Under the pieces are notes generated by a model, which saw only the letters and a list, made by a program, of their open reading frames with translations, had not been told where the DNA came from and did no database searches. A stretch of 64,000 bases of DNA from an uncultured delta proteobacterium (GTDB lineage: Bacteria > Desulfobacterota > RBG-13-43-22): contig CAWBOS010000010.1 of NCBI GenBank assembly GCA_963790475.1, forward strand, positions 928,001 through 992,000. The letters run 5' to 3'. Position 1 is the first letter of the stretch, and each line of letters opens with the position of its first letter. Below are positions 5,965 to 24,268 of the stretch, piece after piece. Position numbers and translations under genes: made by a program.

Positions 5965-6744
5965 ATGAGCCAGGATCACCCACCTTCTCCCGACACCGCC
6001 ATTGAAATCAGAAATTTAGGGGTTTGTCTGCGTAAGATCGATATCCTAACCGAGGTTAATTGCTCCATCCCTGTCCGCAGAACGACAGCCGTTATCGGGC
6101 CTAATGGGGCGGGAAAGACCACTCTGCTTTTGGCTATTCTCGGATTGGTTCCTTATACCGGGAGCATTGATTTTAATTTATTTAAGAAAGGCCGTCCTTC
6201 CATAGGCTATGTACCGCAGCGTTTAGAATTTGACCGGGGCCTGCCTTGCACCGTTGAAGATCTGATGGCTACTTCGATCTGCCGAAAGGCCCTCTGGTTG
6301 GGGAAAAAACAAAAGATCAAAGACCAGGTGCACATCGGACTGGAAAGGGTAGGGGCCGAGGGGTTAAAAAATAGGTTTATAGGCAAACTCTCCGGCGGGG
6401 AATTACAGAGGGTCCTGTTGGCTATGGCCATGGAGGGGAACCCGTCCATCTTGCTTTTAGATGAGCCGACGGCCGGAATTGACGCCCCGGGAGAACAACT
6501 GTTTTGTGATCTCCTGGCCGACATCCAGACTCAAGCCGACTTGACCGTAATCTTGATCTCCCATGACCTTTCCGTGGTCTCCAATCATGCCCAACATGTG
6601 ATCTGTTTAAATAAGACGGTCCGTTGTTCCGGAGGCCTGAACACCCTGACCGAAGAGAACCTGCTGAAGACTTTTGGACTGCATGTTCAAATATATCCTC
6701 ACAGTCACGGCCCCCATCAATCTCAAAATATTTTGAATCCCTGA
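5965..6744 (+). CDS. znuC: Metal ABC transporter ATP-binding protein
   Basis: GPNGAGKTT, IGYVPQ, LSGGELQRV, LLDEPT. Confidence 0.85.
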   Translation: MSQDHPPSPDTAIEIRNLGVCLRKIDILTEVNCSIPVRRTTAVIGPNGAGKTTLLLAILGLVPYTGSIDFNLFKKGRPSIGYVPQRLEFDRGLPCTVEDLMATSICRKALWLGKKQKIKDQVHIGLERVGAEGLKNRFIGKLSGGELQRVLLAMAMEGNPSILLLDEPTAGIDAPGEQLFCDLLADIQTQADLTVILISHDLSVVSNHAQHVICLNKTVRCSGGLNTLTEENLLKTFGLHVQIYPHSHGPHQSQNILNP

Positions 6745-6747
6745 ATT

Positions 6748-7596
6748 ATGGAACCCTTTTTTCAATCGCTCTATTCTTTTCTGCAGACCGCAATCCCCTT
6801 TGAATGGGCTCAATTCGATTTTGTCTGGCGGGCAATCGGGGCCATGTTGATCATAGCTCCTTTGTGCGCTGTCTTGGGAGTTCATGTCGTCAATTTTCGT
6901 ATGGCTTTTTTTTCCGATGCCATCAGCCATTCCACTTTTGCCGGCGTGGCCTTGGGGGTCCTCTTAGGAGTAAATCCTTCTATTACCTTAATCGGTTTTG
7001 GGATACTGGCCGGACTAAGCATCACCCTGTTCAAGGGACGATCAGACTTATCGTCAGACACAGTGATCAGCGTCATTCTTTCGGCTACGGTTGCCTTAGG
7101 GATTACCGTGCTCTACGCCCAGAAGGAAACCCGCAATCTGGAGACCTATCTCTACGGAACCGTTTTGACCATCAGCGATTGGGAATTATTTCTTTTGCTG
7201 ATGATCGGGATCCTGGTTTTTATCATTATGGGTTTTTTATTCAATCATTTGTTTTTAATAAGCCTTAATCCCCACCTGGCCGCCTCCCGTGGGATTCCGG
7301 TAACGGTGTTAGAATACGGCTTTGCCCTGATTCTGGCCGTCGTGGTTACTTTCAGTATTCGGGCCATAGGACTTTTTTTGGTCACGGCTATGCTGGTCGT
7401 GCCGGCGGCAACAGCCAGAAACCTGGCCGCTGGTATGTCCAGCTTATTCTGGTTGGCCCTGATTTGTGCCCTGACCTCCGGTATTGCCGGCATCCTGTTC
7501 TCTTTTTATTGGGATACACCAGCCGGAGCCAGTGCCATTTTGGTCGGTTGCCTTTTATTTCTTATATCCTGGCTCAAGGTGCGCTGGTTTCAATAA
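6748..7596 (+). CDS. znuB: Metal ABC transporter permease
   Basis: MAFFSDAISH, YLYG, multiple TM segments, operon context. Confidence 0.85.
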   Translation: MEPFFQSLYSFLQTAIPFEWAQFDFVWRAIGAMLIIAPLCAVLGVHVVNFRMAFFSDAISHSTFAGVALGVLLGVNPSITLIGFGILAGLSITLFKGRSDLSSDTVISVILSATVALGITVLYAQKETRNLETYLYGTVLTISDWELFLLLMIGILVFIIMGFLFNHLFLISLNPHLAASRGIPVTVLEYGFALILAVVVTFSIRAIGLFLVTAMLVVPAATARNLAAGMSSLFWLALICALTSGIAGILFSFYWDTPAGASAILVGCLLFLISWLKVRWFQ

Positions 7597-7610
7597 AGAC
7601 TTTTTTTCAT

Positions 7611-7639
7611 TTGACAAGAAAAAGCATTTCGAGTATTTT
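7611..7639 (+). promoter_or_regulatory. Sigma70 promoter of the tRNA pair
   Basis: TTGACA (7611)-N17-TATTTT (7634), ~10 nt before tRNA-Gly. Confidence 0.7.
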
Positions 7640-7649
7640 TAAAGATTGA

Positions 7650-7724
<75 letters not shown>

Positions 7725-7747
7725 AAAAACAGGATTCCCATCTGAAA

Positions 7748-7823
7748 GGCGGCATAGCCAAGTGGCTAAGGCAGCGGTCTGCAAAACCGTTATTCACCGG
7801 TTCGAGTCCGGTTGCCGCCTCCA
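7748..7823 (+). tRNA. tRNA-Cys(GCA)
   Basis: GGCGGCA/TGCCGCC acceptor stem, anticodon GCA, GGTTCGAGTCC, 3' CCA. Confidence 0.97.
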
Positions 7824-7856
7824 TTTTTTGATCCGGCTCCAGCCTTCCTTCAATAC

Positions 7857-8702
7857 ATGAAATCTATTAGAGCCCTGACATTAATTATCCTTTTTTTATT
7901 ATTTTCTTCCTCATTGGGGGGACAAGAAAAGCCTAATCAAGCGCCTGTCCTTTGGCAAACCCTTTCTCCGGGCCTTTCCTTTTTTCGTTGGGAAGTTCGC
8001 TCTGCCAATAATTCGATTGATAATACTCTCGTTGTCCTCCGTATTGACCCCGAGCTTTGGTCATTTCGGGTTTTTTTTGACCGAGAGCCTAAAACGGTCA
8101 AGGAATGGCAACAGAGTACCCGGGCCACCGTAACCTGCAACGGCGGATACTATCGGGAAAATTTTCAACCGGCCGGAAGGATTTTAGTGAATGGAACGTC
8201 CCTGGGTCCAAACAAAAACCGGCATATGAAAGGAATGTTTCTCTCCGAACCCAAGAAGGGGTTTGAACATCTCCCTAAAGCGACCTTGATTGATTTGAAG
8301 GACATTAACAGCGAGGAAAGAATTTCCTCCTACGAGCAGGGGATTCAATCCTTTCCGATCCTTTTGGATCCCGCAGGGCAGGTTCGAGTTAATCCGAGTA
8401 ATTTCCAGGCCAATAGAACGGTCCTGGCCCAGGATCATTCCGGGAATATTTATATTTTGATAACGGAGAAGCCTTCTTTTACTCTTTATGATTTTGGTAA
8501 TTATTTAAAAGGGTTGCCGTTTAGATTCCAATTCATTTTAAATCTGGATGGAGGATTGCGTACCCAATTAATGATTCAGGCCAAAGGGTTTAAATATCTT
8601 TTCCCCGGTCAGGGGGAAGGAAGAGGGAACCCCCTCCTGTTTTTCCCGGAGCCGGTTAAACTCCCTTCGGTGATCGGCCTTTTTCCGCGAGGTCCTCATT
8701 GA
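7857..8702 (+). CDS. Phosphodiester glycosidase (NAGPA/DUF2233-like) secreted protein
   Basis: Signal peptide, NGGYY, RTVLA and LNLDGG motifs; start placed after the tRNA. Confidence 0.75.
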   Translation: MKSIRALTLIILFLLFSSSLGGQEKPNQAPVLWQTLSPGLSFFRWEVRSANNSIDNTLVVLRIDPELWSFRVFFDREPKTVKEWQQSTRATVTCNGGYYRENFQPAGRILVNGTSLGPNKNRHMKGMFLSEPKKGFEHLPKATLIDLKDINSEERISSYEQGIQSFPILLDPAGQVRVNPSNFQANRTVLAQDHSGNIYILITEKPSFTLYDFGNYLKGLPFRFQFILNLDGGLRTQLMIQAKGFKYLFPGQGEGRGNPLLFFPEPVKLPSVIGLFPRGPH

Positions 8703-9346
8703 ACCAGGTGTTTATTATCGGATTCGGAAAGTTCGGGAAATTGGCGCTGACCCAGGGGGCTCGTTTGTGGGAAAAGGCGCGGGTCTGGATTATTGATTCC
8801 CGGCCGGAAGCTTTAATCAAACCGGACCCCGAACCTTTTTCGGCGATACGGGTTTTGGCCGACGGCCCTCAATTTTTAACCCAGTATCAAGGATGGATTG
8901 GGGATGAAGATTGGATCATCCCCGCCCTGCCGGTTCACCTGGCCTGGAACTGGCTGGGGCTAAATATAAAATTTCCGAAAGACGCTCGAACCATAATACC
9001 GCCAAAAAGTTTTGGTCGGGGTTTGCCTTTTCATCAAGTCAGCACCCAAGCCCTTTTCCTGAGTTATGCCGACTTTTTGTGTCCCGAAAACTGTCCCGCC
9101 CCACTCCACAGCTGTTTTAAGACCAAAGAAAAAAGGGCTGTTCCCCTCTGGAAATTGATAGCCAATAGACGGTGTCCGACCGGCACCCTGAAGGTGATTG
9201 AAAGTCGGCAAATTGCACCTGGAGTCGGGGGGTATGCTTTTAGGGAGTTAAGAAAAATCCGGGACCTGGCCCTGAAGGCTGATCCTCCTTTTTTTGTGGG
9301 TACGGCCTGCCGTTGTCACGGGGTGGTTAATGGGGTGACCTGGTAG
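8699..9346 (+). CDS. Hypothetical protein with NAD-binding (TrkA-N-like) N-terminus and Cys motifs
   Basis: IIGFGKFG; CPENCP and TACRCHG; TTG start overlaps the upstream stop. Confidence 0.6.
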   Translation: MNQVFIIGFGKFGKLALTQGARLWEKARVWIIDSRPEALIKPDPEPFSAIRVLADGPQFLTQYQGWIGDEDWIIPALPVHLAWNWLGLNIKFPKDARTIIPPKSFGRGLPFHQVSTQALFLSYADFLCPENCPAPLHSCFKTKEKRAVPLWKLIANRRCPTGTLKVIESRQIAPGVGGYAFRELRKIRDLALKADPPFFVGTACRCHGVVNGVTW

Positions 9347-9530
9347 AACAGGGGTTAAGTGCGGGCATCAGAAGTCAGTACTTTCTTAAATAAAATGTAT
9401 GAAGACGCAGGATAAGATTGCCGGTTTTTCTTGACTTACCGCAAGGAGAATGATAATCGATTATTATTAATAATTTCGTTTTTTTAAAGGGCCTTCGAAT
9501 TTGTTACGAGAGACAGAAAGGAGCAGAACG

Positions 9531-10019
9531 ATGGTATCTAATAAGGGTTTAAAGGTATGGGGATGGACTATAGTCTGTATTGGTTTATTGGGGTTCATGC
9601 TGGGTTGTGGGAGTGTCCTGCAGGAACAAAAAAAGGAATCTTCTACCGGAATGACAACTCCCCCGTCCCAAGGCGCCAAAAAACTGGATCGACCTGATGC
9701 CAGATATTACGATTTTGAAGATATCCAGATCCCCAACGAACTCAAGTTGGATACCAAAAATTCGCGAGTTTTTCAATCTCCCAACCTGATGGCCGGGGTC
9801 CTGGTTTTTGATGGTTATGTGGAAGTGAAATCCTTGACCAATTTTTTTAAAGACGCCATGGCCAAGGACAACTGGCAGGCCAAAGGTAGTTTTAAATTAC
9901 CCCCTAAGACGGTTTTGCTGTTTGAAAAAAAGAACAAAAGGAGTGTCTTTTTTATTGAAGAAACCATGTTCAATACCCACGTTGAAATTTGGATGATCCC
10001 AACCCAGGAGGGAGTGTAG
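9531..10019 (+). CDS. Putative lipoprotein
   Basis: SD AAGGAG, hydrophobic leader with lipobox MLGC, YYDFEDIQIP. Confidence 0.65.
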   Translation: MVSNKGLKVWGWTIVCIGLLGFMLGCGSVLQEQKKESSTGMTTPPSQGAKKLDRPDARYYDFEDIQIPNELKLDTKNSRVFQSPNLMAGVLVFDGYVEVKSLTNFFKDAMAKDNWQAKGSFKLPPKTVLLFEKKNKRSVFFIEETMFNTHVEIWMIPTQEGV

Positions 10020-17711: not shown

Positions 17712-18242
17712 CTAGTCGACGGCCTGAGGAACAAGGCAGAACGTTGTAATCTGGTCGAAGCCGCTGTGACCACCGCCCTCTGTTCCCGAGACGACAACGG
17801 CATCGGCCCCAGCCTGCTCGGCTTTCCTGGCGTGTTTTACAGTGGAGCATACGTGAATCACCTTGATACCGGCTCTTTTTAGGATAGGGGTGTAAACTGC
17901 CGGGTTACCTTGAGAAACGATAGCCACCGGTATCCGCTCACTGAGTCCGACTTTCAGGCATTGATCACTGAAGTCCCGGTCCAGTCCGGGGACACCGACT
18001 ACGAAATTAACCACAAAAAGTTTATCCGTTAATTTTCGAAATTTTTTAATCTGTTCCCTGAGTCGTTCTCCTGTTTCAAGGACATCGGTAGTTACTGTTT
18101 GAAACCCGGCATTCGGCCCAATGGTGCCGAGCGCTCCGGCTTCGGAGACGGCAGCTGCGAGATCGGCATCCGTGATCCAAGCCATAGGCGCCAGCACAAT
18201 GGGGTAGGTGATCCCTAACATTTCAGTGATTCTGGTTTTCAT
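17712..18242 (-). pseudogene. Nitronate monooxygenase/FabK-like protein, 3' truncated
   Basis: ITEMLGITYPIVLAPM, AVSEAGALG, GTEGGGH; stops at LVPQAVD before the expected IAAGG motif (176 aa). Confidence 0.8.
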
Positions 18243-18457: not shown

Positions 18458-20442
18458 GCCCATCTTCCGCAGTTTGGAGAAAAAATCAAGAAAAACGTGA
18501 TGAATTTTTAGGAATTGTTAAATGATTTCAAATCCTGATCTTTGAAAATTGGATGTAGTGAAGACCACCCCCTTGCCAGGTGCTGTGGGAACGGAGATAA
18601 TGGGGTTATGTATCTCCGGCGTGCAACCAAAAAGAAAGGTGGAGCGGAGTACGAGAGCTGGCTTTTAGTTGAGTCGGTCCGTACTGCCCGAGGGCCCCGT
18701 CAGCGAGTAGTGGCGACGATAGGGAAACTTCCTGGCCTTGATCGGGAAGAGCGGATAGGTTGGGAGGAGATCGGACGGATTCTTTCCGGAAAGCCTCTAC
18801 CTGGACCTGAACTGTTTGAGCAGGGGGAAGACCCCCCATCTTGGGCCACGGTCAATATCCATGGCGTAAGCGTCGAGCGACTCAGAGGCTTCGGCGATGT
18901 CTATTTGGGGTTGCTTTTGTGGAACAAACTGGGGCTTGCCAGGTTCTGCCGAGATCATATTCCTTCCAACCGGGAAGAGATTCCTTGGTCGATCATGGCG
19001 TCTATTTTAGTTCTTGGACGCTTTTGCGCCCCATCGTCGGAATTACAGATGGCCGAGTTTTGGTATGGCCAGACGGCCTTAGACGATCTGCTGGGAGTGG
19101 CCGACTATAAGATCAATGAGGATCGGCTTTATCGTGCCCTGGATGCCTTGCTTCCCCACAAGGATGCCTTAAGCCGTCACCTTCAGGAGCGTTATGGGGA
19201 ACTGTTCGGCAGTAGCTTTGATTTTTTGTTTTATGACATAACCTCCACCTATTTTGAGGGGACCGCCAAGGGCAATGCCCAGGCCAAGAGGGGTTACAGC
19301 CGGGACAGTCGTCCAGATTGTCCCCAGGTCTGCATCGGCCTGGTGGCCACCCGAGAGGGCTTTCCCATAGCCTTTGAGGTTTTTGACGGCAATCGACCGG
19401 ATGTTACGACGACCCAAGAGATGGTTCAGATGATGGAGGCCAAATACGGCCAAGCCAACCGGATCTGGGTTATGGATCGCGGCATGGTGAGTGAGGAGAA
19501 TCTGGAGTTTATGCGCAAAGTCGGTGCCCGCTATTTGGTCGGCACCCCAAAAGTGATGCTGAAGAAGTTTGAGCAGCAGCTTTTCGAACAGAACTGGGAA
19601 GCGGTCCAACCTGATGTTGAGGTCAAGCTCTGTTGCTCGCCGGAAGGAACGGATGAAATCTTTGTCCTGTGCCGGTCTCAAGGCCGGAAGGAGAAAGAAA
19701 ACGCCATTCTAAACCACTTTTTGACCCGACTGGAAAGCCAACTGGATCACCTGGCCCGCCAGGCCGAAACCGGCAAGCTCCGAGACAAGCAGAAAGTCGA
19801 GCGGAGAATAGGGCGACTGCTGGAACAAAATAAACGTGCGGCCTCGTTGTTCAATATTACAGTCATAGAGACCGGTACCGGAAAAGACGCACCGCTTTCC
19901 CTAGAAGTCAAGAAGAACGAACAACGGCAACAGTGGGCCTTGGAGACCGGCGGTAGCTACATCCTGCGCACCAACTGGACCGAAAGTGACCCGAAAGTCC
20001 TATGGAATACCTACATCCAACTGACGGAAGTGGAAGATTCATTCCGTACCGAGAAACATGATCTGGGAATGCGACCGATCTTCCATCAAAAACAGGAACG
20101 GACCCAGGCTCATATCCTGGTCTGCTTCTTGGCGCTGACTATGTGGCGAACGCTCCAGCAATGGATGAAAGCCTCGGGACTCGGTACCGCCCCAAGAAAG
20201 CTGTTGGAGGAGTTGCGGGAATTGAAATCTTTGGATGTGCTACTACCGGCGCGGGAGAGAACCCTCCGGCTCAGAATGGTGGCTACTCCCTCAAAGGAAC
20301 TCAAAGTGCTGCTTCAGAGATTGAAAATTCTGCTCCCCAACAAACCAAAAATTATTGAAAATGTAGTGAAGAAAATGCCCTAATTCTTGTCGTAACTATT
20401 TGATATCGCGTCTTCCATGCTTTCTAACTGCGGAAGATGGGC
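18458..20442 (+). mobile_element. IS1634-family insertion sequence
   Basis: Perfect TIR GCCCATCTTCCGCAGTT / AACTGCGGAAGATGGGC, flanked by TA (alternatively read as TAG). Confidence 0.92.
18608..20383 (+). CDS. IS1634-family DDE transposase
   Basis: MYLRR...LVESVRTARGPRQRVV, YDITSTYFEG, GYSRD.RPD, VMDRGM, EVEDSFR..K.DL..RPIFHQ. Confidence 0.93.
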   Translation: MYLRRATKKKGGAEYESWLLVESVRTARGPRQRVVATIGKLPGLDREERIGWEEIGRILSGKPLPGPELFEQGEDPPSWATVNIHGVSVERLRGFGDVYLGLLLWNKLGLARFCRDHIPSNREEIPWSIMASILVLGRFCAPSSELQMAEFWYGQTALDDLLGVADYKINEDRLYRALDALLPHKDALSRHLQERYGELFGSSFDFLFYDITSTYFEGTAKGNAQAKRGYSRDSRPDCPQVCIGLVATREGFPIAFEVFDGNRPDVTTTQEMVQMMEAKYGQANRIWVMDRGMVSEENLEFMRKVGARYLVGTPKVMLKKFEQQLFEQNWEAVQPDVEVKLCCSPEGTDEIFVLCRSQGRKEKENAILNHFLTRLESQLDHLARQAETGKLRDKQKVERRIGRLLEQNKRAASLFNITVIETGTGKDAPLSLEVKKNEQRQQWALETGGSYILRTNWTESDPKVLWNTYIQLTEVEDSFRTEKHDLGMRPIFHQKQERTQAHILVCFLALTMWRTLQQWMKASGLGTAPRKLLEELRELKSLDVLLPARERTLRLRMVATPSKELKVLLQRLKILLPNKPKIIENVVKKMP

Positions 20443-22138: not shown

Positions 22139-23011
22139 TCAACTGGGACCCGTCTCAATTCCTATCTGGGCTAAGTATTCCATAAATCTCAAGCTCAATT
22201 CTTCAGGGCTTCCTTCAAATAATTCCTTGTTTTTTTCAGCCAACCCCCCCGACATAATCTGCCACATCCGGTCCTCGGCTGAAAGACTGGTATCGGGCGT
22301 AAAAATTCGTTTAGGCCTTGGCTTGGGTATTTTGATATTCAGCAATTCTACCTTGGTCTGTCCTAGGGTGTCTTCCGGCGATATGTTCAGACCTTTTTCC
22401 TTTATTCTGTTGATTTCGGTCTTCAGGGCGGATAAGAGGCAGGGCAGGGTGGAGTATCGCGGTTCATTCAAGCTTTCCTCTAGAGTGAGCAGGGCCGGAA
22501 GGGGAACCACGATCCTTTCCCTGTAGCCCTTTTCCAATTTTTTTTCCAACACCAGCTGCTTCTTCTCAATAAGCAAATCGAGTTTGGTTACCCGGGAAAC
22601 GATCGGCAGGTTCAGCCGGTCCGCTATCACGTATCCGGTCTGACCTCCAAAGTTGTCCATCGATCCGTGTCCGCAGAGGATGAGGTCTATGTCCATTTTA
22701 CGACACCAAGCCGCCAGGAGAACACCAATCGCATAGCCGTCCGGATTATTAACGGAGGATTCAATAATTGAGGCCTCATCAGCCCCGAGGGATAAACAAT
22801 GCCGTATTAAATTTTCTGCGGAAGGAGAGGATAGGGCGATCAGAAAGACCTTGCCCGATCCATTCGTCTCTTTCAAGCTCACCGCCGCTTCGACGGCGAC
22901 CAGATCGGAGGGGTGAACCGTATAAATAAGATCTTCCGGGTCGATCCGTCCGTCGTCGAAGCTGATGATATTCGGATCTGGAAAAAAATGGAGGCAGACA
23001 ATGATATTCAT
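22139..23011 (-). CDS. fixA: Electron transfer flavoprotein beta subunit (FixA/EtfB)
   Basis: MNIIVC, D..AVEAA, LGADEA, DLILCG..S.D..GGQ, NEPRY. Confidence 0.88.
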   Translation of the reverse strand: MNIIVCLHFFPDPNIISFDDGRIDPEDLIYTVHPSDLVAVEAAVSLKETNGSGKVFLIALSSPSAENLIRHCLSLGADEASIIESSVNNPDGYAIGVLLAAWCRKMDIDLILCGHGSMDNFGGQTGYVIADRLNLPIVSRVTKLDLLIEKKQLVLEKKLEKGYRERIVVPLPALLTLEESLNEPRYSTLPCLLSALKTEINRIKEKGLNISPEDTLGQTKVELLNIKIPKPRPKRIFTPDTSLSAEDRMWQIMSGGLAEKNKELFEGSPEELSLRFMEYLAQIGIETGPS

Positions 23012-23017
23012 TTATAA

Positions 23018-23118
23018 GCTTTCAGCGATCAGCATTCAGACGTCAGGAAAACAACAGATAGCTCCTTGCTCATTACTGGGTGCTCGAAAAAACGAGAAAC
23101 GAGTAATCAGTAACGAAA
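23018..23118. repeat. Heptamer repeat patch downstream of the MerB-like gene
   Basis: gctttca gcgatca gcattca gacgtca; ttgctca ttactg ... gagtaat cagtaac. Confidence 0.65.
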
Positions 23119-23122
23119 CTTT

Positions 23123-23803
23123 CTATGGCATTTTCGCTCCCAGCTCCTTTCTGGCTTGTTTGGCTTCATCCGACCTGAGCCAGGAGATATAATCGGGACG
23201 TTTCCGGGCGCGAAAAATAAGGTTGCTGAACAGATCCGCCCAGAAGGCCAGAGGTTTTAAGGTTTTTTCAAACTCGGGATTAAATGAAGCCCACCCACGA
23301 ACATGTTCTTCCGACCGGAAGAGGTTCATGCCCGCTCAACGATACGGTCTGGTCTCAAGGGTCCCGCCGATCTCACTGTAGGTATAACCAACAATGGGCT
23401 CAGGCTGCACCGAAAGGATGTCCTCGTCCTTCATTTCAATAACGATGGGTTCTCCGCAGTCCAGACAAATGGCATCAAGCCGTACATGCTTTCCGGGGAA
23501 GAGCCAGCGAACCGCCAGCGCTTCGAATCCTCACTGGGCGAACCATTTTGGTTCACCGTCTATGGTGATGCGGTATTGGGTGGGTTGGTTGTTGAAGGGA
23601 GGGAAAGAGGCAATCCAGTCCGTCTGGGGGTGGACCCAACCGGGCACCCCGGAAGTCATCAGGTCATGGACCAATTGACGCCCTTCTTCCATCCCGATCC
23701 CCAGGTCCTTGGCCAGTTCGGTATGATGGGGGGCCTGACCGGTTTTGATGAAACGTTGCATGATGTTGTAAAACGCCCGATCCATTAAAGCGAGATCTGC
23801 CAT
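23123..23803 (-). CDS. MerB-like (organomercurial lyase fold) selenoprotein, 226 aa, Sec91 and Sec156
   Basis: One frame with TGA at 23531-33 and 23336-38: WFAQ-U-GFE...CLDCGEPI...R-U-AGMNLFRSEEH; SD AGGAGG; hairpin after each TGA. Confidence 0.88.
23297..23335 (-). promoter_or_regulatory. SECIS-like hairpin for Sec156
   Basis: GCGGGCATG-aacc-TCTTCC-ggtc-GGAAGA-a-CATGTTCGT directly 3' of the TGA. Confidence 0.75.
23498..23524 (-). promoter_or_regulatory. SECIS-like hairpin for Sec91
   Basis: GAAG-c-GCTGGCG-gtt-CGCTGGC-t-CTTC; G-initiated loop ~18 nt after the TGA. Confidence 0.65.
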
Positions 23804-23828
23804 GTTGGTATCCTCCTTTTATAAAAAT

Positions 23829-23992
23829 AAGGGTTTAAGGTGCAAGGTACAGGGTTTAAAGTAAAAACCAGTGGTAACTTGGAGTACTGGAGTGATGGAG
23901 TACCGGAGTATTGGTCTGAAAAACCCGGTACTTCAAATTTTCAATATACCAATATCCTGTGTTCCAACACTCCCATACTCCATTACTCGCCT
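23829..23992. repeat. Heptamer plus inverted octamer tandem repeats between fixX and the MerB-like gene
   Basis: taaggtg caaggta cagggtt; ggagtact ggagtgat ggagtacc ggagtatt ... aacactcc catactcc attactc. Confidence 0.8.
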
Positions 23993-23998
23993 CCCGAT

Positions 23999-24268
23999 CT
24001 ACCCGTATCGCAGACATACTCCGTATCCCCCGCGGGGATAACTCCATTCAATAGCTTGGTTTTCGCAGGTGATGCGGCAGGCACCGCATTCCACACAACC
24101 TTGCCAGGAAAAAACAATTTCGCCCTGGCTCAGTACATAATTCTTAACCGGGCAAACATACAGACAAGGTTGATGGACGCAGGTAGAGCAACGTGATCGG
24201 TCGATCTTAATGTGCGGAGACAGATCGACCTTGAATCGTACTCGGGTTAATTTTTCTTCTATGTCCAT
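23999..24268 (-). CDS. fixX: FixX-type ferredoxin
   Basis: PHI...C..C...PCLYVCP, CVECGACRI.C, WSYPRGGYGV..RYG. Confidence 0.93.
   Translation of the reverse strand: MDIEEKLTRVRFKVDLSPHIKIDRSRCSTCVHQPCLYVCPVKNYVLSQGEIVFSWQGCVECGACRITCENQAIEWSYPRGGYGVCLRYG

Follow-up and report, generated by a model that had tools for sequence, protein, structure and literature searches.

The 64,000-nucleotide (nt) stretch analyzed here (the window; positions 928,001 to 992,000 of contig CAWBOS010000010.1, GenBank assembly GCA_963790475.1) belongs to the genome of an uncultured delta proteobacterium and contains, on its minus strand at 23123 to 23803, a gene that very probably encodes a genuine selenoprotein with the fold of the organomercurial lyase MerB and with selenocysteine (Sec) at two active-site positions. 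Comparison with its relatives, at the level of genes and predicted proteins, indicates that this two-Sec MerB-like family is real and widespread; it is apparently undescribed. The gene is a single frame of 226 codons followed by a TAG stop, and its only internal stops are the TGA codons 91 (23531 to 23533) and 156 (23336 to 23338). Under the standard code only the two ends of the frame are visible, i.e., a 90-amino-acid (aa) open reading frame (ORF; 23531 to 23803) and a 68-aa ORF (23123 to 23329), both on the minus strand; the first-pass annotation of this DNA had joined them into one frame, and the translation bears this out. The frame opens with an ATG (23801 to 23803, minus strand) that follows a ribosome-binding site, AGGAGG (23812 to 23817, minus strand), at a distance of 8 nt, both as read from the sequence.

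The codons that relatives use at the two sites carry the signature of Sec and not of tryptophan. A pattern scan of species-representative genomes returned at least 506 loci encoding a relative, a number that is a lower bound because loci with TGA at site 1 were beyond the reach of the first search pattern. The DNA was checked, by BLAST column mapping, for 92 loci, namely the best 80 of these together with 12 from a search of related genomes, the window's own locus included. Site 156 is TGA in all 92 loci, and site 91 is TGA in 52, TGC in 31, and TGT in 9; the forms without TGA thus have Cys codons, and TGG occurs at neither site. The two TGAs fall in the same alignment columns across paralogues of about 50% identity and across several phyla. 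A match was present in 18 of 61 related genomes, and 25 of the 28 matches listed contain exactly two TGAs, the rest being two stop-free N-terminal fragments and one weak match with one TGA. The frame also appears to be translated through both TGAs, since the median ratio of nonsynonymous to synonymous substitution rates (dN/dS; 161 sequence pairs) is low in all three segments, with 0.155 for codons 2 to 90, 0.245 for codons 105 to 155, and 0.183 for codons 170 to 205.

Protein databases hold the family in altered form. Among the best 120 of 432 protein matches, 80 carry Cys at site 1 and stop directly ahead of site 2. W stands at both sites in 33 and Cys at both in 3; Cys is followed by W in 1, another 1 shows Gly at site 1 before it ends, and the remaining 2 are partial. 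Because TGG is absent from the 92 loci checked at the DNA level, these W residues presumably represent TGA called under a code in which TGA means Trp; the three Cys/Cys proteins could in principle be Sec records displayed as C. Several of the truncated homologues are named "organomercurial lyase." The suspicion that the gene is hidden from ordinary gene calling is substantiated by such entries, which end at 154 to 156 aa or carry W at both sites, and homologues have TGA or Cys at both codons, as anticipated for true relatives. Two database proteins stand apart: P0013, with Cys at site 1 and a presumed TGA rendered as W at site 2, is devoid of the MNLFRSEEH stretch that encodes the site-2 hairpin, and P0028 has Gly at site 1. 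Both may be decayed copies, assembly errors, or variants.

The machinery for Sec decoding, on which the first-pass annotation had made its reading depend, is present in the genome (6.34 Mb in 20 contigs; the window is on contig C10). The tRNA-Sec gene (74.3 bits), selB (390.6 bits), selA (629.5 bits), and selD (394.1 bits) all score above curated cutoffs, selB and selD are located on the window's own contig, and neither selA nor selB has internal stops. TGA ends 541 of the 1,617 stop-to-stop frames of at least 400 codons, and the standard code therefore applies in this genome. The selD gene (C10, 1969676 to 1970587) itself holds one in-frame TGA and is thus probably a selenoprotein form of SelD. 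A second selA-like region on contig C13 (443305 to 444664) is broken into four pieces that lie in different frames and contains a TAA; a decayed copy is one possible explanation and an artifact of assembly or contamination another, the contamination estimate for the genome being 9.68%.

A predicted Sec insertion sequence (SECIS) stem-loop with G/U in its apical loop is present after both UGAs and is conserved at synonymous sites. The first (23498 to 23524, minus strand) folds into a short outer stem (GAAG/CUUC) and an inner stem of 6 to 7 bp (GCUGGC(G)/(C)GCUGGC) with a GGUUC/GUU apical loop about 18 to 20 nt downstream of TGA-1. The second (23297 to 23335, minus strand) is a long two-part stem with a conserved upper part ((C)UCUUCC/GGAAGA(G)), a variable lower part, and a GGUC apical loop. 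At site 2, all seven upper-stem pairs are formed in 76 and six of seven in 16 of the 92 loci, and 85 loci have a GGUC loop and 7 a GUUC loop. Codons 161 to 165 are the five columns of lowest synonymous entropy in the gene (Leu CTC, 100%; Phe TTC, 99%; Arg CGG, 92%; Ser TCG, 100%; Glu GAA, 99%), and the median synonymous divergence (dS) is 0.29 over codons 157 to 169 versus 0.73 to 0.86 elsewhere in the gene. On the 92-sequence alignment, the upper stem is 97.6% paired and shows one compensatory double change, and the whole structure is 80.7% paired versus 35 to 46% when the register is slid. Substitutions inside codons 160 to 166 occur in each of the three Cys/Cys database proteins, a pattern that fits a relaxed RNA constraint (n = 3). 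At site 1, all six inner pairs are formed in 51 of 52 TGA forms versus 10 of 40 Cys forms, and, as counted over the eight commonest loop types listed, 41 of the 52 TGA forms have a GGUNN loop and 7 a CGUNN loop. The normalized synonymous entropy of codons 95 to 103 is 0.48 in TGA forms (rest of the gene, 0.82) and 0.69 in Cys forms (rest of the gene, 0.70).

Not every test of the hairpins was favorable. Those described in the first-pass annotation do occur after each TGA, but their single-sequence folding energies do not stand out from those of shuffles (z = +0.65 for site 1 and -0.79 for site 2), so that the support comes from the comparison across loci. Bulk energy is of no use in that comparison either: the 50 nt after site 1 have a mean folding energy of -17.0 in Cys forms versus -14.6 in TGA forms, probably because of the higher G+C content of the former (0.68 versus 0.63), and the specific hairpin was scored instead. 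Independent contrasts (5 to 6 pairs; sign test, P of ~0.5) give no significant association of the site-1 hairpin with TGA. On a tree built without the columns of this hairpin, the Sec/Cys state changes six times, and the hairpin follows in about two pairs and is unchanged in about three; the raw contrast of 51/52 versus 10/40 mostly reflects one Actinomycetota clade. The lower stem at site 2 is 67.5% paired, with no covariation above shuffles on the 92-sequence alignment, and the upper stem is so nearly invariant that covariation is uninformative apart from the one double change. An Rfam scan of window positions 23000 to 23900 with E values up to 10 gave no match.

With respect to its protein family, the read-through product matches the Pfam MerB profile (PF03243) with 62.9 bits (cutoff, 27), residues 71 to 185 aligning to profile positions 2 to 114 of 126, and the gene scored 46.2 bits in a search of the whole genome with stops read through. 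An AlphaFold2 model built with 27 homologues (mean predicted local distance difference test score, 88.8; predicted template modeling score, 0.85) has an N-terminal helical domain and a beta-rich core. In a Foldseek search of the PDB with this model, ranks 1 to 11 are all MerB or MerB2 (probability, 1.00; E values, 5.9e-9 to 8.7e-7), and rank 12 follows with an E value of 0.096; TM-scores are 0.49 to 0.63 when normalized to the query and at most 0.69 when normalized to MerB2, at 15 to 20% identity. HMMER alignment to solved MerB chains pairs U91 with Cys96, E94 (codon at 23522 to 23524) with Asp99, C113 with Cys117, and U156 with Cys159, which reproduces the motif matches originally proposed from the sequence (C96xxD99, the Cys117 region, and C159). 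Alignment and predicted fold show that the presumed Sec91, Glu94, and Sec156 occupy the positions of MerB Cys96, Asp99, and Cys159. Glu94 and the two cysteines of the Cys113-x-x-Cys116 motif (CLDC; 23456 to 23467, minus strand) are invariant in 92 of 92 loci, so that the Asp-to-Glu exchange seen in the window copy extends to every locus checked. The equivalog cutoffs for MerB in NCBIfam were not reached (NF009710, 31.1 versus 193; NF033555, 24.1 versus 200), nor was that of the SaoL model NF040728 (window protein, 37.9 versus 140; four other copies in the genome, 30.4 to 45.3), and no model of NCBIfam release 20 was passed by the two-Sec protein or its paralogues in the genome. Judged by profile matches and modeled structure, the window protein belongs to the MerB superfamily and has the MerB fold, and it is neither canonical MerB nor SaoL.

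The gene is not the singular oddity for which it had been taken, given the hundreds of loci in species representatives and the multiple copies in its own genome. According to record titles, Sec/Sec forms occur in Binatia, "Deltaproteobacteria," Dehalococcoidia/SAR202/Chloroflexota, Methylomirabilota, and two Actinomycetota genomes, and Cys/Sec forms occur mostly in Acidimicrobiia. The window's genome has five MerB-family genes, each with two TGAs. Four of the five, the window copy among them, are of the Glu type; the other three share about 50% identity with it. The fifth, on contig C6 at about 349414 to 350085 (L112, 6015 to 6686; minus strand), lies directly upstream of a sulfatase gene, is more distant, and retains the Asp (U-A-A-D ... 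C-A-H-C ... F-U-T-E-C). Since this copy combines two Sec with Asp, two Sec residues arose or persisted in two branches of the MerB superfamily.

The window copy is located on the same strand between genes for a FixX-like ferredoxin (23999 to 24268) and an electron transfer flavoprotein (ETF) beta-like subunit (22139 to 23011). Further out, there are FixC-like, ETF-alpha, and old yellow enzyme (OYE)-type reductase genes on one side and CCG/4Fe-4S and enoyl-coenzyme A (CoA) hydratase genes on the other. This ETF/Fix neighborhood is free of mer genes, in agreement with the earlier placement of the gene outside a mer operon. No promoter or terminator consensus was found around the window copy, from which we infer cotranscription with the cluster. 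A search for RNA sequencing runs listed none that contains the region. In L018, a locus from the same genus, Pfam identifies the flanking ORF on the low-coordinate side as an ETF-domain protein, and its counterpart in L019 is 63% identical. The cluster of ETF and enoyl-CoA hydratase genes is edged by a DDE transposase gene (DDE_Tnp_1; DUF4277 match below cutoff) at 18542 to 20383 on the plus strand. A 176-aa ORF of the nitronate monooxygenase family at 17712 to 18242 on the minus strand adjoins the transposase gene and matches only positions 2 to 190 of a 331-position profile; an insertion may have truncated it.

The neighbors of the other copies in the genome include CoA-transferases and an acyl-CoA ligase; a hydroxyacyl-CoA dehydrogenase, an aldo-keto reductase, a hydrolase, and a major facilitator superfamily transporter; radical S-adenosylmethionine (SAM), amidase, short-chain dehydrogenase/reductase (SDR), glyoxalase, and molybdopterin oxidoreductase genes; and the sulfatase. 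A Pfam scan of 150 of the 161 immediately flanking ORFs of the family most often found SBP_bac_11 (12 ORFs), flavin adenine dinucleotide (FAD) oxidoreductases (9), and PBP_like (8), followed by OYE, enoyl-CoA hydratase, and luciferase-like monooxygenase (6 each). In nine Dehalococcoidia/SAR202 loci (L053 [5998 to 9683, plus strand], L051, L055, L058, L062, L065, L070, L076, and L100), the gene heads a codirectional run of binding protein, permease, and TOBE-ATPase genes, with a divergent gene for a helix-turn-helix (HTH)-PBP regulator. Judging by sequence and by the SBP_bac_11 matches, we take the binding protein of this run to be ModA-like. A Lin0512-family gene and a UbiD gene were also seen near these transporter runs.

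What might such a protein do? The balance tips slightly toward a Sec-decoded, two-Sec MerB-fold protein that cleaves a carbon-metal(loid) bond, with methylmercury possibly among its substrates. We put the chances of carbon-metal(loid) lyase chemistry as such at about even, and methylmercury is a tentative and rather doubtful candidate for the physiological substrate. MerB acts by protonolysis of the carbon-metal bond, with Asp99 as the proton donor. The intact gene would make a cytoplasmic selenoprotein of about 26 kDa with the MerB fold. The comparison strongly supports decoding of both UGAs as Sec by SelA, SelB, SelC, and SelD, with insertion at each directed by a SECIS hairpin whose GGU-containing apical loop lies about 18 to 22 nt downstream. 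In the proposed reaction, the soft metal or metalloid center of the substrate, an organometal(loid) compound, would be bound by the two selenolates, and the leaving carbon would receive its proton from Glu94, as it does from Asp99 in MerB. Protonolysis would free the hydrocarbon, and the metal would stay bound between both seleniums until it passes to a downstream thiol or selenol acceptor. The several paralogues per genome, together with the lack of mer genes, suggest that the range of organometal(loid) substrates is broader or of another kind.

A connection to mercury is offered by the genome itself, which carries hgcA on the window's contig (C10, 447409 to 448386, minus strand; 438.6 bits; cutoff, 275) with the motif NVWCAAGK, followed by a gene for a ferredoxin with CxxCxxC motifs. 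We take NVWCAAGK to be the HgcA signature and the ferredoxin to be HgcB-like, and the bearer of this genome therefore plausibly makes methylmercury. The frame upstream of the hidden Markov model match to HgcA shows a Cys-Cys pair and not the Cys-Sec that has been reported for most HgcA proteins. Subthreshold matches to the HgcA model of about 70 bits were seen in most related genomes (here C12, 75158 to 75580), many with in-frame TAG or TAA; our guess is that these represent corrinoid iron-sulfur proteins belonging to the acetyl-CoA pathway.

Several observations weigh against the carbon-metal(loid) lyase reading, and gene context lends no direct support to the high-affinity organometal lyase or anaerobic methylmercury demethylase suggested in the first-pass annotation. 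There is no mer operon, and no MerA above the cutoff was found in the genome (best score, 353.9 versus 454.45). Co-occurrence with hgcA was rejected as a functional link because it is loose: of the 21 genomes in the taxonomic family of the window, 11 carry the MerB-like gene together with hgcA, 5 the MerB-like gene alone, 2 hgcA alone, and 3 neither of them, and in the other families of the phylum, 11 of 40 genomes have hgcA, of which 10 lack a MerB-like match and 1 has an N-terminal fragment only. The family is common in lineages labeled Acidimicrobiia, SAR202/Dehalococcoidia, Binatia, and Methylomirabilota, which to our knowledge are not mercury methylators. The catalytic acid is Glu and not Asp in all loci checked, so that a defining residue of MerB is missing. 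No neighbor is conserved family-wide, the largest neighbor clusters covering 15 of about 95 loci. In addition, two selenolates would bind Hg(II) extremely tightly, which makes release and turnover problematic without a dedicated acceptor. The multiple paralogues, the absence of mer genes, the nonmethylating lineages, and the tight binding of mercury together argue against simple mercury detoxification.

The same exchange at the acid position, Glu for Asp in 92 of 92 loci, could point to a protein without catalytic function, in which Sec91 and Sec156, possibly with Cys113 and Cys116, capture Hg, Cu, Cd, As, or Se/Mo/W species and buffer them or pass them on without cleaving a carbon-metal bond. 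Diselenolate-metal complexes are expected to be very stable, as a binder, chaperone, or sink would demand. A single change at the acid position of MerB is described as yielding a copper binder in the available text of the Haft & Gwadz preprint, and PDB entries 5c0t and 5c17 are among the fold matches. The commonest immediate neighbor is a ModA-type solute-binding protein (SBP_bac_11, 12 of 150 ORFs), PBP_like regulators account for a further 8, and the gene heads the transporter runs in nine Dehalococcoidia/SAR202 loci; a binder or chaperone might perhaps be tied to oxyanion uptake in Chloroflexota. This transporter association is confined to one lineage, though, and may reflect shared descent, and the four to five paralogues per genome stand in varied catabolic contexts; moreover, two costly Sec residues and an acid three positions after the first of them would be more typical of catalysis than of storage. 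We regard such a role as unlikely, if worth keeping in view. The catabolic contexts could instead suggest a redox selenoenzyme for carbon-heteroatom cleavage or exchange on organic substrates, in which one Sec attacks, the second resolves the adduct to a diselenide, Glu94 acts as acid/base, and a flavoprotein or ferredoxin delivers electrons. The window copy lies inside a same-strand cluster of ETF-alpha, FixC-, FixX-, and ETF-beta-like, CCG/4Fe-4S, enoyl-CoA hydratase, and OYE-type genes, other copies stand beside CoA-transferase, acyl-CoA ligase, SDR, amidase, radical-SAM, and molybdopterin oxidoreductase genes, and the flanks of the family are enriched in FAD/flavin mononucleotide oxidoreductases, enoyl-CoA hydratases, luciferase-like monooxygenases, and SDRs. 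Redox reactions are the presumed role of most prokaryotic selenoproteins (PMC9312934, available portion). Such catabolic genes are, however, abundant in these genomes, so that with no neighbor conserved family-wide their adjacency may be background, and the conserved residues sit exactly at the positions of the metal-binding triad of MerB, a fold for which we know of no redox chemistry. Overall, a redox role of this kind seems improbable to us.

Both of these proposals share with the lyase the premise that Sec is inserted. If it were not, the locus would be a decaying pseudogene, three small ORFs, or a gene of an alternative code with TGA as a Trp or Gly codon, for which the W residues in database homologues (at both sites in 33 and at site 2 alone in 1 of the best 120) and the unremarkable single-sequence energies of the hairpins could be cited. 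This is contradicted by the frequency with which TGA closes long frames in the genome, by selA and selB genes without internal stops, by the absence of TGG from either site in the 92 loci, where the alternatives are Cys codons, by the persistence of exactly two TGAs in the same columns across paralogues of about 50% identity and several phyla, by dN/dS values of 0.16 to 0.25 in all three segments, and by the complete Sec machinery. A nonselenoprotein is accordingly exceedingly improbable and already close to refuted.

A two-Sec protein of this type would be rare, considering that a bacterial enzyme with Sec at both metal-binding catalytic positions is unusual and that the vast majority of the 119 prokaryotic selenoprotein families are single-Sec (2026 review, PMC13188914, available portion). 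The only MerB relative in the available portions of the selenoproteome reviews of 2022 (PMC9312934) and 2026 (PMC13188914) is SaoL, with one Sec, and the available portion of PMC2398784 makes no mention of MerB. The literature searched, to which supplementary files did not belong, contains no description of a two-Sec or Glu-type MerB family. The family is systematically misannotated (among the best 120 homologues, 80 are truncated at the second UGA and 34 have W for UGA), which affects both selenoproteome catalogues and environmental surveys based on merB. Its Sec/Sec/Glu triad represents a natural experiment on how the identity of the chalcogen tunes the protonolysis of metal-carbon bonds.

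Net methylmercury levels depend on demethylation as well as on methylation, and the genetics of mer-independent demethylation is, as far as we know, an open question, which a multicopy Sec-MerB family in an hgcA-carrying genome makes directly testable. A speculative and, in our estimate, unlikely extension of the lyase reading is that the family represents a widespread, overlooked Sec-dependent carbon-metal(loid) lyase free of mer operons and thereby the missing reductive, MerA-independent methylmercury demethylase of hgcAB-bearing anaerobes, possibly also of marine SAR202 and Acidimicrobiia. If so, makers of methylmercury would also carry several selenoenzymes that destroy it, and merB surveys relying on standard gene calls would have misscored hundreds of species.

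Among known systems, the closest in structure are MerB (plasmid R831b; PDB 3F0O, 3F0P, and 1S6L) and MerB2 (PDB 5C17), with which the window protein shares the family PF03243, the fold, and the aligned active-site positions. The triad of MerB is Cys96/Asp99/Cys159 (Haft & Gwadz preprint, available text). Compared with canonical MerB (EC 4.99.1.2), both Cys96 and Cys159 are replaced by Sec, which is chemically analogous and not identical, Asp99 is replaced by Glu, and an additional invariant Cys116 gives a CxxC motif; the gene is also chromosomal, present in several copies, and located outside a mer operon. Sec has further been reported in proteins of organomercury chemistry, i.e., in selenoprotein variants of HgcA and HgcB, which form methylmercury (Haft & Gwadz preprint, available text), but HgcA, a corrinoid methyl-transfer protein, is unrelated to the window protein in fold and reaction.

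SaoL is the closest protein described so far, and its precedent for a MerB-like selenoprotein, named in the first-pass annotation, is confirmed in the available text of the Haft & Gwadz preprint, to which the following statements on SaoL and its neighborhood also refer. Like the window protein, SaoL is a MerB-superfamily selenoprotein with a database entry cut at UGA and with Sec at the equivalent of Cys159, is encoded outside a mercury-resistance operon, and has a suspected organometallic substrate. The triad of SaoL (NF040728) is Cys99/Asp102/Sec162 with one Sec, in a Cys-Sec dipeptide; Sec162 aligns with Sec156 of the window protein, which differs in having Sec at both sites, Glu for Asp, and R-U-A, i.e., Arg and not Cys before the second Sec. 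SaoL belongs to a nine-gene SAO neighborhood that includes a selenoprotein ATP-binding cassette transporter, SaoE, SaoC, SaoT, and SaoD; genes of this neighborhood were absent around the window copy by Pfam annotation of nine flanking ORFs, for which no Sao-specific NCBIfam models were used. SaoL is reported from 45 of 52 such neighborhoods in strict anaerobes, whereas the window-type family comprises at least 506 loci and extends to lineages labeled Acidimicrobiia, SAR202, Binatia, and Methylomirabilota.

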